A stretch of DNA of 43,969 nucleotides from Escherichia phage SZH-1: the sequence record NC_073319.1, one strand, 5' to 3'. The notes under the pieces were generated by a model. That model saw only the letters and a list, made by a program, of their open reading frames with translations, was not told the origin of the DNA and made no database searches. Each line of letters starts with the position of its first letter. Position 1 is the first letter of the stretch. The translations under genes and the position numbers were made by a program. Shown here piece by piece: positions 8,418 through 18,269 of the stretch.

Positions 8418-10661
8418 ATGTCCGATGTAATTTTATCCTACTCGTGGTCTCGTCGCAACGCGCGGGCAGAGAAAAAGGATATAAACGTCAGAACTACACA
8501 CACGGCAACACTGGACGACCTGAAAGAGTTAATCCAGCCGCTCGATGCTGTTCGTGATGGGATTAACCCGAAGACCGCGCCCGGTTATATCACTGCCGCG
8601 TGTGACTCGACGCACAGCACCGTAAAAGACCCGGAAACAGGAGACTTTAAGCAGGCGCGTAAAGGCTTTTTCTATCGCTGCGACGCGTCTGTAAGCAAAT
8701 CGTCGCTGGCGTATCTGGACTTCGACAACGCAACGCCGGAAGAGTATCAGGAAGCGGTGCGCCTGGTTAAGCGCAGCCGCCGGGCTATGTGTCTCTATAC
8801 CACGGCATCACATACCGATGAGTCCCCGCGCTTTCGCGTCGTCATGCCGCTGGGCCACCCTGTTGAAGGCGGCGACATCATCCGCGTTCGCCATGGATTG
8901 TTGGAACACTTCTTCAAAGGTATGGGCGCCGACCGCAGCGGTTTTACCCTGTCCCAGCCGATGTACCTGCCGCCAGTTGGCTCTACCGTTATCTGGTCGC
9001 GTCGCAACGACCTGATTGACCCGGACGAGTTACTGGAAGGCATCCCGGATTACGAGGTAAGCAGCGCATCGGATTACCAGATACCGGAAGAACTGCGCAC
9101 CGTGTTTACCGATGCGTTCGAGGCACTGGCGTTTGAATACGGCGGCATCATGACACCACGCGGCCTTAAGATGCCAGCTACACCAGAACACGCAGAGAAC
9201 TACAGCGACCCGACCCCTCGCCCGGATGACTTCCTGCTGTGTTTCCCGCGTGAGGGCTACGAAGCGCCTAACGTAACCATGATTCACGACACCGACATTA
9301 CAGCAACCGAAGGAATGTCGCCGAAAGAGGTGTGGAGATACGCGTGCGATGCGACCGGGCTGCCATTCAGTGAAGTCGCCGAGGCTATCGGCTGGGGTGC
9401 ACGTGAATATGTCTCATGCAGCCTCGACGACCTGGAAGATGGTGATGAGGACTCAGAGGAGGACGAGTTACCGGAACCGGTAAAGGCTGATTTCGTCGTT
9501 GAGGGGTATATGCCGTCGGATTGTATCTGGGATATTGTTGGGGAATCAGGCACGTACAAATCATTCTATACGCTGGGTATGATGTATCTCAGCGCCGCCG
9601 GATACCGGTTTGCTGGCGCTGACACGCAGCGTTGCCACCACTTCTATATCGACGGTGAGGGGGGCGCAGCCACACGTACACGTATTGACGCGCTCGCGGC
9701 TAAATACGGCGCAGAGGGTAAAGATTATGTACACGTCATCGACATGGGCGAAGTCGGCAAACTTAAAAGCCTGATTAAGTTAATGCGCGAAACTGCGGGC
9801 GATGAACCTATCGGCATGGTCGCGTTCGACACCCTTAACCAGACCCTGGCCCTGACGATTGATAAGTTCGACGAGAACAGCTCATCAACGGCAATCGGTA
9901 TGGGTAAAGTTATCGCCATCCTGAAAGAAGTACGTGATGCGACTAAAGCCGCGGTGGGCGTCGTCCACCATACACCGAAGGGTGGAAAGAAAGCCCGCGG
10001 TAGTGGGGCGCTGTATGCGGGCGTCGACGTGGAACTGACAATCGAACGCGCCACTGACCGTCAGATAAACGTATACCACTCTAAATTTAAGCATGGGCCT
10101 CAACAGAAGACGGTTGGCATGGTGCTGGAGTCGGTACAGTTCCGTGAAGCGCCACCACCGAAAGAGTACCGTGCGGTTGAGTTCCTCGGTAGCACAGAGG
10201 AATACGGCACAATCGTAAACCTCGACCTGCCGGAACCGCACAAGGCGCTTGTGCTGATGCCGTGGGGCTTCGAGCCGTTCAAAACTGACGAGGAGAAAGA
10301 GCGGGAAGAAGGGATGACAAAGGAAGGTAAAGAAAACGTAAAGAATGCCGTAAAACGTGGGAAGGATGAAGGAAGGAAGGAATCCATACTCGCCGCGCTG
10401 GAAGACCTGCAACAGTCTGACGACACCGGACGAGGTTTTACCCAACGGCAGATAGTATCGAACTCGGGTGACCATGCCATCACTAACCACCATCTCGAGA
10501 AGATGCTGAAAGACGGTGAGTTGATGCTAGGATGTGATGCTAACGGCGAGGTTATCCCCGGTACATACCGGATACCGGAAAAGATGGGTGACAGATTAAG
10601 ACCGAAGACAATATACGAACCAAATGAAATGCTGGTGGTTACAGAGGAGGATTTGGAATAG
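8418..10661 (+). CDS. Primase-helicase-like replication protein
   Basis: N-terminal primase-like region with LDFDN; C-terminal RecA-like NTPase with Walker A GESGTYKS and Walker-B-like VAFDTL; ends VTEEDLE. Confidence 0.8.
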   Translation: MSDVILSYSWSRRNARAEKKDINVRTTHTATLDDLKELIQPLDAVRDGINPKTAPGYITAACDSTHSTVKDPETGDFKQARKGFFYRCDASVSKSSLAYLDFDNATPEEYQEAVRLVKRSRRAMCLYTTASHTDESPRFRVVMPLGHPVEGGDIIRVRHGLLEHFFKGMGADRSGFTLSQPMYLPPVGSTVIWSRRNDLIDPDELLEGIPDYEVSSASDYQIPEELRTVFTDAFEALAFEYGGIMTPRGLKMPATPEHAENYSDPTPRPDDFLLCFPREGYEAPNVTMIHDTDITATEGMSPKEVWRYACDATGLPFSEVAEAIGWGAREYVSCSLDDLEDGDEDSEEDELPEPVKADFVVEGYMPSDCIWDIVGESGTYKSFYTLGMMYLSAAGYRFAGADTQRCHHFYIDGEGGAATRTRIDALAAKYGAEGKDYVHVIDMGEVGKLKSLIKLMRETAGDEPIGMVAFDTLNQTLALTIDKFDENSSSTAIGMGKVIAILKEVRDATKAAVGVVHHTPKGGKKARGSGALYAGVDVELTIERATDRQINVYHSKFKHGPQQKTVGMVLESVQFREAPPPKEYRAVEFLGSTEEYGTIVNLDLPEPHKALVLMPWGFEPFKTDEEKEREEGMTKEGKENVKNAVKRGKDEGRKESILAALEDLQQSDDTGRGFTQRQIVSNSGDHAITNHHLEKMLKDGELMLGCDANGEVIPGTYRIPEKMGDRLRPKTIYEPNEMLVVTEEDLE

Positions 10662-10662
10662 G

Positions 10663-10689
10663 TAAAAAGAAAGGGGCGTTAAGCCCCTT
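10663..10689 (-). terminator. Terminator of the XRE regulator transcript
   Basis: Hairpin AAGGGGC-gttaa-GCCCCTT overlapping the XRE stop codon, followed on the minus strand by TCTTTTT. Confidence 0.45.
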
Positions 10690-10894
10690 CACCGAACGCC
10701 AGCCACTTGGCGTCTACTTGCAGCACTTCCGCCAGTTTAAACAGCGTTGCCGGGCGGACGTCCTGAGTTACCCCGAGTGCGAGCTGGTTAATCGCACCCT
10801 GGGAAACGCCGGCCAGGACAGCCAGACGGCGCTGTGAGATGCCGAGTTCTTTACGGCGTTGTTCTACACGGATGCCTAGTTCAGATGGTTGCAT
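10679..10894 (-). CDS. XRE-family (Cro/CI-type) HTH transcriptional regulator
   Basis: RRKELGISQRRLAVLAGVSQGAINQLALG is a classic XRE HTH; AAGGAG RBS; divergent from a consensus promoter. Confidence 0.75.
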   Translation of the reverse strand: MQPSELGIRVEQRRKELGISQRRLAVLAGVSQGAINQLALGVTQDVRPATLFKLAEVLQVDAKWLAFGEGA

Positions 10895-10958: not shown

Positions 10959-10988
10959 TTGACAACCTGAATAGTTAGCTATTATAGT
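10959..10988 (+). promoter_or_regulatory. Near-consensus sigma70 promoter TTGACA-N17/18-TATAGT with dyad GAATAG-ttag-CTATT in the spacer
   Basis: TTGACA at 10959..10964, TATAGT at 10983..10988; near-identical copy at 13237. Confidence 0.65.
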
Positions 10989-11019
10989 TAGCCCATACCA
11001 AACGAGAGGAGAGAAACAA

Positions 11020-11508
11020 ATGTTAGAACAATTTTTAAAATTACTGGAACGTTTCGTAGTTGCGCACGAACTGATTGCCGCGAATAGCGTGAAACAACCT
11101 GTGTATGAACTTAAGGCAGATGTAAACATCGCAGATAGTGTTCGTGATGTTGTTGTGAAAGAAGTAACGAAAGAAATCCCGGTAGAAGGTGAAGACACCG
11201 TTGACACTAAACCAGCAGAAGAAGAGAAGCCGAAGCGCAAGCCGCGTAAAGCTAAAGTAGAGGAGCCAACGCCAGAGCCGGAAGAAGAGAAAGAAGAAGT
11301 CGATTACCAGTCTCTGCGCGACCAGATTCAGGCTATCGACGATGCAATTAACGAAGGTCCGAGCGATGCCGCGTGCGATGATTCCGATGAACTGCTGGAA
11401 GAGTTTACCGGTAAGAAGATGAAGATTGCTGCGATTAAAGACGAAGACCTGGCTGAGTACCTGGAACGCCTGACGGCAATCAAGAACAAGTATTTTGAAG
11501 AAGAATAA
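11020..11508 (+). CDS. Highly acidic protein (162 aa)
   Basis: Long D/E-rich stretches, ends ...KYFEEE; first gene downstream of the consensus promoter. Confidence 0.55.
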   Translation: MLEQFLKLLERFVVAHELIAANSVKQPVYELKADVNIADSVRDVVVKEVTKEIPVEGEDTVDTKPAEEEKPKRKPRKAKVEEPTPEPEEEKEEVDYQSLRDQIQAIDDAINEGPSDAACDDSDELLEEFTGKKMKIAAIKDEDLAEYLERLTAIKNKYFEEE

Positions 11509-11514
11509 CTATCT

Positions 11515-11531
11515 GGCGGCCTTCGGGCCGC
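11515..11531 (+). promoter_or_regulatory. Intergenic RNA hairpin with UUCG loop
   Basis: GCGGCC-ttcg-GGCCGC followed by only TTT. Confidence 0.35.
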
Positions 11532-11551: not shown

Positions 11552-11824
11552 ATGATTTACCAACTCTATCGCGCCGTAGACAGGCGGGATAACACAGAGG
11601 CGCTATGGCTATTGCGTGCGCCGTCCGGTGCGCACCAGATGGAAGAGATGGCGTACTTAGGCAAAGTACCGCGGCCTAAAGATATAGGCCGTCACGTGTC
11701 GCAGATTAAGCGCACGACTTTCGCAAAACCTGACTTTTATGTCTTCGAGTCGATGTATAGCTGGGCTATGCATTGCCAGCACCAGACCAGACATCTAATT
11801 GACCAGTGGGAGAACAGGGCATGA
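11552..11824 (+). CDS. Hypothetical protein (90 aa)
   Basis: ATG with GAGGG RBS; stop overlaps the next gene's ATG. Confidence 0.5.
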   Translation: MIYQLYRAVDRRDNTEALWLLRAPSGAHQMEEMAYLGKVPRPKDIGRHVSQIKRTTFAKPDFYVFESMYSWAMHCQHQTRHLIDQWENRA

Positions 11825-13062
11825 TTTTAAAAGAACGCGGCGGCAATAACGATGTTCACGCATTACTGTCGCCGTCAGGTGCTAAAAAATGGCTGTCATG
11901 CGCTGCATCACTGGCCTGTGAAAAAGATATTCCTAACACGTCCGGCAAAGCTGCCGTTACAGGTACCGCGTGCCACACCATAGCAGAGATGCACCTTAAC
12001 CAGTACATCAAAGGCACTGCACTGCCGTTAGAGCGTGAAGTTGGCGCTTACGTGCTGGATGAGGGTAAAGGCCAGATTAAGGCGCTAATCAGCCCGATGA
12101 AAGGTGCGGTGCTGATTACGGCAGACATGATTGAGCAGGTGCGCAAGTACACCGACTACTGCAAAGCTGTTATCGATGTAGCGACTTACGCCAAGCTCGA
12201 GATGCGGGTAAATCTTACTGAGGTATTGCATCCTGGTTACGAAGGCGTTGAGACGTTCGGAACCGCCGACCTTGTTGCCGTTCAGGAACTGGCTAACACA
12301 GACGAGCACATGCTTATTATCGGCGACCTGAAAACGGGACGCCATCGTGTTGAAGCGAAAGAAAACAAGCAGCTTATGCTTTACGCTCTCGGTGTTTATC
12401 GCAGACTCAAGAGACGTTATAACATCACCGTGGTTCGTCTGGTAATCTTCCAGCCGTACGCCGGGGGCGCGTCGGAGTGGGACATCTCGGTTGAAGGTCT
12501 GGAACTGTTCGCTAAGTTCGCGCAGAAACGTGCCCTGTTAGCGTTAGGTGCATATTTCCGCGGTAAGAAGAACCTGAAAGCGTCGGATTTCAGGCCGTCA
12601 GTAGATGGCTGTCAGTGGTGTCGGTTCTCTGAACAGTGTGCCGCGCGTACAAAAACCGTTAACGCGGTACTGGCGGAAGAACTGGAGGATGACTTTGCAC
12701 TGGAGCTTACACCAGAGCAACTTGTGGCTGAGTACGAGAAGTTGCCGTTGTTGCGCCAGCACATCGACAAGGTTGAGAAAGCTATGGCTGCCGCTTTGCA
12801 TTCCGGTAAGAAAGTGCCGGGGTACAAACTGGTTGAAGGTCGCCCAGGTAATCGTGCGTGGAAAGATGCGGAGAAAGTGGCAGAACTCTACGGCGACAAG
12901 CTGACTAAAGAAGTGCTCATGACGCCAACCGAAGCGGTTAAAGTTGTGCCAGAAGAAGAACTGAAAGACTTCATTACCCGTAAGCCTGGCGCGCCATGCG
13001 TCACAACGGCAGACGACAAACGTCCTGAGTGGAATCAGGTAACAGAGGAGGATTTAGAATGA
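11821..13062 (+). CDS. PD-(D/E)XK nuclease, Cas4/RecB-like, with 4-Cys cluster
   Basis: ATG at 11821; nuclease core ...DLVAV...IIGDLKTGRH...; Cys residues WLSCAASLAC and CQWCRFSEQC; ends VTEEDLE. Confidence 0.7.
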   Translation: MILKERGGNNDVHALLSPSGAKKWLSCAASLACEKDIPNTSGKAAVTGTACHTIAEMHLNQYIKGTALPLEREVGAYVLDEGKGQIKALISPMKGAVLITADMIEQVRKYTDYCKAVIDVATYAKLEMRVNLTEVLHPGYEGVETFGTADLVAVQELANTDEHMLIIGDLKTGRHRVEAKENKQLMLYALGVYRRLKRRYNITVVRLVIFQPYAGGASEWDISVEGLELFAKFAQKRALLALGAYFRGKKNLKASDFRPSVDGCQWCRFSEQCAARTKTVNAVLAEELEDDFALELTPEQLVAEYEKLPLLRQHIDKVEKAMAAALHSGKKVPGYKLVEGRPGNRAWKDAEKVAELYGDKLTKEVLMTPTEAVKVVPEEELKDFITRKPGAPCVTTADDKRPEWNQVTEEDLE

Positions 13063-13236: not shown

Positions 13237-13265
13237 TTGACACCTGAATAGTTAGCTATTATAGT
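13237..13265 (+). promoter_or_regulatory. Near-consensus sigma70 promoter TTGACA-N17-TATAGT with the same spacer dyad
   Basis: About 30 nt identical to the promoter at 10959; upstream of the SSB-like gene. Confidence 0.65.
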
Positions 13266-13323: not shown

Positions 13324-13950
13324 ATGGGACTGAAATTAAATCTGCGTAAAGTAAACACTGCATGGGTTAACGTATTTGAACGCGAAAAAGACCGTGAAAA
13401 CGACGATGGCTCAATCACTAAAGGCCAGTACAGCGCGACTATTATCCTGCCGTCCGACCACGCACAAATCGACGCGCTCTACGACACCGTTTACGCTGTA
13501 GTTGAAGAAGCGTTAGGTGCAGCCGCCGCCGAGAAGTGGATGAAGTCCAACTACGGCGAAGGTAAGCACATGGATAAATGTGCGATTAAAGACATTGCCG
13601 AGCGTGACAATCCGTTTGAAGACTTCCCGGAGGGCTTCTACTTCAAAGCGAAGGCACAGAAACAGCCGCTGATTGTAACCTCTAAAAAAGGTGAGACTCA
13701 GGTAGAGCAGGACTTCAACGTAGACGGCGAACAGATTGAAGGTGAACAAGTTTACAGCGGCTGCGTCGCTAACGTAAGCGTCGAAATCTGGTTCAGCCAG
13801 AAATATAAAGTCCTCGGCGTTAACCTGCTGGCGATTAAGTACGTCGGGGAAGGTAAAGCGTTCGGTGGTTCTAAAGTCGCTGCAAGCGTCAACGACCTTG
13901 AAGACGACGAAGAGGATGAAGCGCCGCGCCGCGAACGTCGCCGTCGCTAA
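13324..13950 (+). CDS. T7 gp2.5-like single-stranded DNA-binding protein
   Basis: Blocks align by eye with T7 gp2.5 (YSATIILP, PLIVTSKKGE, GVNLLAIKYVGEG...FGG); acidic DLEDDEEDE then basic RRERRRR C-terminus. Confidence 0.55.
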   Translation: MGLKLNLRKVNTAWVNVFEREKDRENDDGSITKGQYSATIILPSDHAQIDALYDTVYAVVEEALGAAAAEKWMKSNYGEGKHMDKCAIKDIAERDNPFEDFPEGFYFKAKAQKQPLIVTSKKGETQVEQDFNVDGEQIEGEQVYSGCVANVSVEIWFSQKYKVLGVNLLAIKYVGEGKAFGGSKVAASVNDLEDDEEDEAPRRERRRR

Positions 13951-17397: not shown

Positions 17398-17589
17398 ATG
17401 AAACACGAATACGACCGCAAACCAGCACGTGACATCGTACCGGGCGACATGATTTTCAATGTTAAGACCCGTCGCCCTGTTGCCGTTGATACGGTGTACG
17501 TAGAGTCGAACGGTAAACTGGTTATCGAAGACGTAACCGGTAACGTTACGGCGTTCGGGCGTAAAGAGTTAGTTCTGGTGGCGAAATGA
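17398..17589 (+). CDS. Hypothetical protein (63 aa)
   Basis: ATG with AAGGAA RBS. Confidence 0.5.
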   Translation: MKHEYDRKPARDIVPGDMIFNVKTRRPVAVDTVYVESNGKLVIEDVTGNVTAFGRKELVLVAK

Positions 17590-18269
17590 TTATCTGGTCA
17601 TTGTTCGACGGTTCGGGCCTCATGGCCCAACCGTGGGCGGAAGCGGGCCATACTTGCTATTGTTTCAACTACGACGGTGCCGACCACGGCGACTACGCGC
17701 GATTGGGCGCAAAAGTTGAACACGAGAACATCCACTATATAAACGCGTGGATTGACAATAAATTCGACTTCGAGGTTGCGCCGGATATTATTTTTGCGTT
17801 CCCTCCGTGCACAGATTTAGCTGTTAGCGGCGCAGCGCATTTCGAAACGAAGCGGAAGAAGAATCCAACTTTTCAGGTAGAGGCCGTGATTACATGCAAA
17901 GCGGCTGCGCGTCTGGCTAAAAAGTACAACGTACCTTATATGATTGAGAACCCGGTTAGCGTTCTTTCGTCTTTATGGCGCAAGCCTGACTATTCGTTCA
18001 ATCCGTACGAATACGGCGGCTATTTACCCGAAGACGACACGCACCCAATGTTCCCCGAATACATAAAACCGCGGGACGCGTACCCTAAGAAGACATGTAT
18101 TTGGGCGGGTAACGGTTTTGTGATGCCCGTTAAATCATGTGTCGCCGTGGTTGATGGGTACTCCGACCAACACAATAAATTAGGCGGTAAATCGGTGAGG
18201 ACAAAAACAATACGCAGCCTTACCCCGCGTGGTTTCGCAAAAGCAGTTCATGAGGCCAATCATGTCTAA
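17586..18269 (+). CDS. Compact DNA (cytosine-5)-methyltransferase-like protein
   Basis: Motif I LFDGSG, motif IV FPPCTDLAVSG, motif VI ENPV, RSLTPRGFAKAV near the C-terminus; only 227 aa. Confidence 0.55.
   Translation: MIIWSLFDGSGLMAQPWAEAGHTCYCFNYDGADHGDYARLGAKVEHENIHYINAWIDNKFDFEVAPDIIFAFPPCTDLAVSGAAHFETKRKKNPTFQVEAVITCKAAARLAKKYNVPYMIENPVSVLSSLWRKPDYSFNPYEYGGYLPEDDTHPMFPEYIKPRDAYPKKTCIWAGNGFVMPVKSCVAVVDGYSDQHNKLGGKSVRTKTIRSLTPRGFAKAVHEANHV

Follow-up and report, generated by a model that had tools for sequence, protein, structure and literature searches.

A conserved acidic protein of the Kagunavirus replication block is a tentative replication-module adaptor and very unlikely to be an Ocr/ArdA-type anti-restriction protein

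The genome of Escherichia phage SZH-1 (sequence record NC_073319.1) contains, at positions 11020-11508 of its plus strand, a gene for a highly acidic protein of 162 amino acids. Having analyzed the whole 43,969-nucleotide stretch (the window), which is essentially a complete Kagunavirus (Guernseyvirinae) genome, we tentatively read this product as a modular adaptor or scaffold, abundant and without enzymatic activity, that belongs to the phage's DNA replication–recombination module, a reading to which we give slightly less than even confidence. We infer this role because the gene belongs to a syntenic core, shares its promoter with the gene of the single-stranded DNA-binding protein (SSB), yields an abundant product and encodes two constrained modules on a flexible linker, with no catalytic domain. 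A preliminary description had proposed a DNA mimic of the Ocr/ArdA anti-restriction type and regarded an acidic replisome scaffold as equally possible. The scaffold is the better-supported half of that proposal, on the grounds of context and expression, whereas the mimic reading is unsupported.

The gene keeps a constant place in the genome. It opens a conserved block in which it is followed by one to three small open reading frames (ORFs) and by the genes for a DUF2800/PD-(D/E)XK nuclease, an Enc34/gp2.5-type SSB and DNA polymerase A (PolA), with a helicase–primase gene adjoining the block. DNA around the acidic gene matches 426 phage records, mostly from Kagunavirus and Jerseyvirus (Guernseyvirinae). 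The block order is seen in the window, in phiSD1, Bas74 and close Kagunavirus relatives, in the distant Guernseyvirinae Serratia phage Otaku, GRNsp27 and phiEap-2, in the metagenomic contigs L007 and L011, and also in Dhillonvirus (TheodorHerzl and EE09) and Eiauvirus (Edwardsiella phage eiAU). Record counts for the acidic family and the nuclease run closely together, with 355 versus 357 in Salmonella phages, 11 versus 11 in records named 'Kagunavirus' and 224 versus 245 in Escherichia phages. APSE-2 encodes a distantly related form of the nuclease, with no annotated gene of matching size and position upstream. In three phage lineages the acidic gene is thus a fixed core gene of the replication block, and not a variable accessory.

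A sigma-70-type promoter, TTGACA-18 nt-TATAGT (10959-10988, plus strand), lies ahead of the acidic gene and matches the consensus at 11 of 12 positions, which bears out the TTGACA promoter of the preliminary description. No ORF separates it from the acidic gene in the window. That description had also stressed that the gene is the first behind its promoter, which is true here but is not a conserved trait: relatives have extra ORFs in between, and the acidic gene is not the first in Bas70, GZMU_E2010, phiEap-2, Otaku or L011. In relatives, the gap between promoter and acidic gene is a variable accessory slot (L004:2328-2507; L009:3393-3881; L010:915-1142; L003:4406-4597; L011:6718-7959). Its contents include a Ral-labelled ORF (GZMU_E2010), an HNH endonuclease (phiEap-2), a 75-amino acid ORF (Bas70) and a 63-amino acid ORF (Otaku), and in two metagenomic contigs an AcrIF11-like ADP-ribosyltransferase with two further ORFs. 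We conclude that an accessory or anti-defense slot lies upstream of the acidic gene, which is its conserved anchor; the slot is empty in this window, and therefore the acidic gene looks like a 'first gene'.

The promoter has a twin. A promoter scan found a second copy, TTGACA-17-TATAGT (13237-13265, plus strand), which heads the SSB and DNA polymerase genes. An identical 21-nucleotide core, TGAATAGTTAGCTATTATAGT, takes in the spacer and -10 element of both copies (10968-10988 and 13245-13265) and occurs nowhere else in the genome. Because of this identical core, regulation of the acidic gene is tied to that of the replication genes. Divergent from the acidic gene is a gene for a 71-amino acid HTH_3 (Cro/CI-type) regulator (10679-10894, minus strand; Pfam HTH_3, E=1.2e-12). 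This protein is a candidate regulator of the twin promoters, and their conserved spacer, which holds ATAGTTAGC twice at the first promoter site, may be its operator.

These features raise the alternative that the acidic protein is a regulatory partner of the divergent helix–turn–helix (HTH) protein, that is, an anti-repressor or switch component controlling the twin promoters, and not a replication factor. A small HTH or repressor-type gene sits just upstream in most relatives checked (the equivalent ORFs of L005, L008, L009 and L013 fell outside the HTH check), and the spacer shared by the twin promoters is non-random and could be an operator. However, the HTH gene and the acidic gene can be separated by up to three unrelated genes, the acidic protein has no predicted DNA-binding fold, and an infected cell seldom contains regulators among its most abundant proteins. 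We therefore consider a regulatory partnership improbable.

Abundance is indicated by both codon usage and proteomics. With E. coli codon weights, the acidic gene has a codon adaptation index (CAI) of 0.50, the third highest of 33 ORFs; the major head protein reaches 0.61 and the SSB 0.54, and the head decoration protein scores lower than the acidic gene. The codons of the acidic gene are thus as well adapted as those of the SSB and the major virion proteins. When Escherichia coli infected with the Dhillonvirus EE09 was analyzed by whole-cell proteomics at 25 min, only four phage proteins were detected (PMC10673088). Two of these are CDS56, a homologue from the acidic family, and CDS61, whose gene occupies the SSB position. 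The proteins listed for cell-free EE09 phage lysates do not include CDS56 (PMC10673088). High codon adaptation, detection in EE09-infected whole cells and absence from the lysate list together identify the acidic protein as an abundant intracellular non-virion protein that is expressed along with the SSB. Two details of the EE09 annotation may be recorded here. The annotated start of EE09_56 (CDS56, L014:2910-3608) lies about 60 codons upstream of the start conserved in the family (MFEQIVNLITRGVVALETIA...), and a small neighboring gene called 'putative transposase' sits where other members have the small regulator gene.

The coding sequence itself, an ATG-initiated ORF of 162 codons before the stop that ends in KYFEEE, is as the preliminary description gave it; the coordinates 11020-11508 include the stop codon. 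A strong Shine–Dalgarno region, GAGAGGAGAG (11004-11013, plus strand), ends 6 nucleotides before the ATG. In comparisons with four relatives, the ratio of nonsynonymous to synonymous substitutions (dN/dS) is 0.03-0.18 over residues 1-23, rises to 0.34-0.43 over residues 24-95 and falls to 0-0.02 over residues 96-162. This pattern, together with the detection of the Dhillonvirus homologue by mass spectrometry, argues for a real gene whose product comprises two constrained modules, under strong purifying selection, and a relaxed linker. A replication origin inside the acidic gene, as in lambda O, was considered and rejected: there are no iterons or tandem repeats, and the GC skew just tracks the direction of transcription.

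The protein contains 44 Asp and Glu residues (27%) and 24 Lys and Arg residues (15%), for a net charge of -20 and an isoelectric point (pI) of 4.47. It is the most acidic of 18 ORFs compared, the other 17 large ORFs having at most 18% Asp and Glu, and acidity is kept throughout the family, with net charges of -9 to -23. The protein is not, as had been claimed, dominated by Asp/Glu runs: there are just four acidic triplets and no longer run, and the Lys and Arg content of 15% compares with 5% in T7 Ocr.

Alignments of close and distant members and AlphaFold2 models of two of them (the 162-residue protein and P0143) divide the chain into three parts. The first is an amphipathic N-terminal helix (residues 2-21; 11023-11082, plus strand) with the near-invariant sequence MLxxFLxLLERFVVAHELIAANS, a predicted local distance difference test score (pLDDT) of about 80 and the dN/dS of 0.03-0.18 given above. 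It is the best-conserved part of the protein, with R11, A15, E17 and A20 invariant family-wide, and is presumed to be a docking motif. The second is a disordered, indel-rich polyampholyte linker of 74 residues (residues 22-95; 11083-11304, plus strand). Its block-mean pLDDT is 45-64 (45-54 for residues 31-90), and the P0143 model is alike; in all, about 45% of the chain is predicted to be disordered. Residues 24-93 contain 30% Asp/Glu and 20% Lys/Arg, in blocks that run acidic, basic, acidic. The basic block includes the conserved patch KPKRKPRKAK (K70-K79; 11227-11256, plus strand). A Lys/Arg/Pro patch is present in every full-length member, elsewhere as KPKRGRKP, KPRGR, KPTRKPR or similar, and in sequence it resembles an AT-hook.

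The third part is an acidic three-helix bundle (residues 96-160; 11305-11499, plus strand), with helices predicted at residues 96-112, 116-130 and 141-160 and pLDDT values of 83-90, or 80-89 in P0143. The chain ends in an aromatic–acidic tail, KYFEEE (11488-11505, plus strand), for which the family consensus is KY[YF]E-x-E[DE]. In the metagenomic members P0133, P0144 and P0146, the three-helix domain is tandemly duplicated, giving proteins of 208-212 amino acids. Docking of the N-terminal helix onto the C-terminal domain to form a four-helix bundle was considered and rejected, the predicted template modeling score (pTM) being 0.39-0.45 and the helix pLDDT only about 62 in a member with a short linker. 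Neither of the two models contains a predicted DNA-binding fold.

Homology searches place the protein in a family of its own. It belongs to PHROG 3127, a family with no assigned function, and matches the profile over its full length (E=1.5e-68; residues 1-162 align with positions 1-177 of the 178 in the profile). The product is 100% identical to an Escherichia phage SZH-1 protein labelled '13.88 kDa late protein'. This legacy name comes from the Salmonella phage MB78 protein (UniProt Q9T1Z8), a direct family member, and it records size and expression class only, not function; a literature search yielded nothing usable on the MB78 'late protein' or on Guernseyvirinae transcriptomes. BFVD matches were family members only, including MB78 Q9T1Z8 and gp46 of Edwardsiella phage eiAU. 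Pfam gave no match at E<=1 for the acidic protein or any of 25 family members, and NCBIfam, PADLOC and the PDB (searched with the single sequence and with a profile) gave no informative match for the acidic protein. When 1.84 billion cluster representatives were searched exhaustively with HMMER, only 31 clusters matched. A profile of the C-terminal domain found eight proteins, none of them fused to another domain, and thus no fusion evidence ties the protein to a known function.

How might such a protein act in replication? If it is an adaptor, a partner would dock on the N-terminal helix and another on the tailed C-terminal bundle, the candidates being the helicase–primase, the gp2.5-like SSB, the polymerase and the nuclease, several of which also have acidic tails. 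The basic patch would contact DNA or the acidic tails of partner proteins, and through its flexible linker the protein could bridge replication proteins or bring them together on the phage DNA. On this reading, the protein does not inhibit type I restriction enzymes in the manner of Ocr.

The C-termini of the neighboring replication proteins fit into this picture. The helicase–primase (10638-10658) and the DUF2800 nuclease (13039-13059) end in the identical seven residues VTEEDLE. The SSB ends in ...DLEDDEEDEAPRRERRRR (13888-13947), where an acidic stretch is followed by the basic sequence RRERRRR. These proteins also have acidic C-terminal tails in Otaku, GRNsp27 and the metagenomic contig L007, which suggests a docking peptide common to the replication module. 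In the T7 replisome, the acidic C-terminal tails of gp2.5 and gp4 bind gp5. The KYFEEE end of the acidic protein, the acidic ends of helicase–primase and nuclease, and the acidic stretch near the C-terminus of the SSB are reminiscent of this arrangement. In contrast to the T7 proteins, the acidic protein has no oligonucleotide/oligosaccharide-binding (OB) fold or enzymatic domain, and the phage SSB ends in the basic RRERRRR.

Several points weigh against a replication adaptor. The N-terminal helix stays almost unchanged between phages with divergent replication proteins (about 46% identity for the nuclease), and such conservation would suit a conserved target in the host no less than a partner from the phage. 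Adjacency to recombination genes and abundance would also be expected of an inhibitor of host nucleases resembling Gam or gp5.9. In addition, the CAI values depend on the codon weights used, which were those of the Sharp–Li table for E. coli.

The first two of these points lead to the most serious alternative, in which the protein is an acidic decoy or inhibitor of some other host DNA-handling protein, foremost RecBCD, or else H-NS or RNA polymerase, with the conserved N-terminal helix plugging a host target that is itself conserved. Being linear, a phage genome of this kind has to be protected from RecBCD. The order acidic protein, nuclease, gp2.5-like annealing SSB parallels lambda gam-bet-exo and T7 5.9-6; the composition is close to that of gp5.9 (25% Asp/Glu and 10% Lys/Arg); the helix hardly varies among phages that infect many different Enterobacterales; and expression is abundant. 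Like the RecBCD inhibitors lambda Gam and T7 gp5.9, which are encoded beside exonuclease and annealase genes, the acidic protein is small, acidic and helical, and its gene lies beside nuclease and annealing/SSB genes, a likeness that is contextual and not diagnostic. There is, however, no homology (hhalign probabilities of 0.12% for lambda Gam and 0.15% for T7 gp5.9) and no fold match. The acidic protein also differs from both in its long disordered linker, its basic patch and its monomer-like three-helix bundle, and a pure decoy would leave the long linker, with its conserved and DNA-binding-like basic patch, unexplained. We regard a host-enzyme decoy as unlikely, though as an alternative of real weight.

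An architectural parallel is found in PopZ (DUF2497). Caulobacter PopZ has 177 amino acids, with a client-binding N-terminal helix (residues 1-23), a 78-residue acidic intrinsically disordered region (IDR; residues 24-101) and three oligomerizing C-terminal helices (PMC9512792). The 162-residue acidic protein has a helix at residues 2-21, a 74-residue IDR at residues 22-95 and three helices within residues 96-160, and the acidic fraction of its IDR is 0.30, compared with 0.29 in PopZ. No homology underlies this likeness: there is no DUF2497 match, and hhalign gives a probability of 0.35% against a PopZ sequence that was verified by its own DUF2497 match (E=3e-24). The two also differ in that the IDR of the acidic protein is a polyampholyte (20% Lys/Arg) with fewer prolines, not a polyanion, and in that its C-terminal domain is itself acidic. 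The PopZ likeness is an analogy and a lead for a hub mechanism, not a family assignment. By this analogy, the protein might be a phage hub whose C-terminal helices self-associate, whose linker and patch hold DNA or acidic tails, and whose N-terminal helix recruits a client, giving rise to a membrane-less replication compartment. We think this a long shot; were it true, the compartment would concentrate SSB, polymerase, nuclease and helicase–primase in small enterobacterial siphoviruses.

We now turn to the proposal that the protein is a DNA mimic of the Ocr/ArdA type. Such a mimic would be the first product of an infection and would shield the incoming genome by binding enzymes of type I restriction–modification (RM) or bacteriophage exclusion (BREX) systems. 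The protein is small and acidic, with an Asp and Glu content of 27% compared with 29% in T7 Ocr; its gene is the first ORF behind a strong, near-consensus promoter in this genome; and it is probably abundant. Pfam includes Ocr and ArdA models, and the lack of any Pfam match at E<=1 speaks against the proposal, as do an hhalign probability of 0.46% for family alignment A3 against T7 Ocr and fold searches that returned no Ocr or ArdA match. DNA mimics have no common fold, so missing homology alone is not decisive. Ocr is elongated and folded throughout, with surface carboxylates placed like those of bent B-DNA and hardly any basic residues, whereas nearly half of the acidic protein (about 45%) is predicted to be disordered, and it has three times the basic residues of Ocr and a conserved basic patch. 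ArdA homology and its elongated three-domain fold are likewise absent. In addition, the acidic gene is a fixed core gene of the replication block, with the variable accessory slot on its upstream side.

More direct evidence comes from published plating data, which concern Kagunavirus relatives, not SZH-1 itself, and RM systems among which BREX was not assayed. According to the BASEL extension, isolates of Kagunavirus show 'a high sensitivity to RM systems' (PMC11990801). The efficiency of plating (EOP) of Bas70, Bas71 and Bas72 lies between 5e-6 and 9e-5 on EcoKI and between 6e-5 and 1e-3 on EcoCFT_I (PMC11990801 S1 Data), and is comparably low on type II and type III systems (PMC11990801). 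An intact homologue was confirmed for Bas70 only, where it is 81% identical, with a single substitution in the last 105 residues; Bas72 has a full-length tblastn match (83.8%). The protection from type I restriction that a mimic would confer is therefore not seen in these relatives, which EcoKI restricts roughly 10^4-10^5-fold.

The SZH-1 genome itself points in the same direction. On both strands of the whole window there are no EcoKI sites (AACN6GTGC), compared with 7.3-7.4 expected; a count of zero arose in one of 600 first-order Markov simulations and has a Poisson P of 6e-4. EcoB sites, with two found and 4.6 expected, are unremarkable, and the BASEL Kagunavirus relatives have 2-5 EcoKI sites each. 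The absence of EcoKI sites looks like selected, passive site avoidance, and such depletion is the expected evolution of a phage without an active anti-EcoKI protein. Given the plating data, the site depletion, the lack of homology or fold likeness, the disorder and the basic patch, an Ocr/ArdA-type function of the acidic protein is very unlikely, and we give the full anti-restriction scenario almost no credence. The gene should not be annotated as anti-restriction. Elsewhere in the window, a 227-amino acid ORF (17586-18269) matches PHROG 757 'DNA methyltransferase' (E=6e-86); judging from this match, the phage might get round some restriction systems by self-methylation.

Further features surround the acidic gene. 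A hairpin, GCGGCC-UUCG-GGCCGC (11516-11531), starts 8 nucleotides past the stop codon and is followed only by TTTAA. It is not significant as a terminator by folding (z=-1.4) and was not called by the terminator scan; it could attenuate read-through or stabilize the transcript. The next gene is a 90-amino acid ORF (11552-11824) of PHROG 4965, which has no assigned function, and it overlaps the start of the nuclease gene. This ORF is called 'phosphoheptose isomerase' in one relative, with no supporting Pfam or NCBIfam match, and its CAI of 0.235 is the second lowest of the 33 ORFs scored. Finally, the helicase–primase gene (8418-10661) was compared for orientation across the window, L003, L005, L007, L008, L009, L011 and L013. 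In Kagunavirus and its closest relatives it lies upstream of the replication operon on the same strand, and in Otaku, GRNsp27, phiEap-2, Dhillonvirus, eiAU and the metagenomic contigs it is divergent. This difference in orientation implies that the segment was inverted in one lineage.

The acidic protein is a core, highly expressed component of sequenced phages from Kagunavirus, Jerseyvirus, Dhillonvirus and Eiauvirus, several hundred in number. Many of them were isolated for biocontrol or therapy of Salmonella or E. coli, and one of them, CM001, serves as an engineering chassis. It is a conserved and abundant protein of a widely used phage group, with nothing pointing to a new principle. Naming the partners of its helix and its acidic bundle would clarify a widespread module of nuclease, gp2.5-like SSB, PolA and helicase–primase, and the identity of those partners would decide whether the protein is a replication organizer or an inhibitor of a host enzyme.

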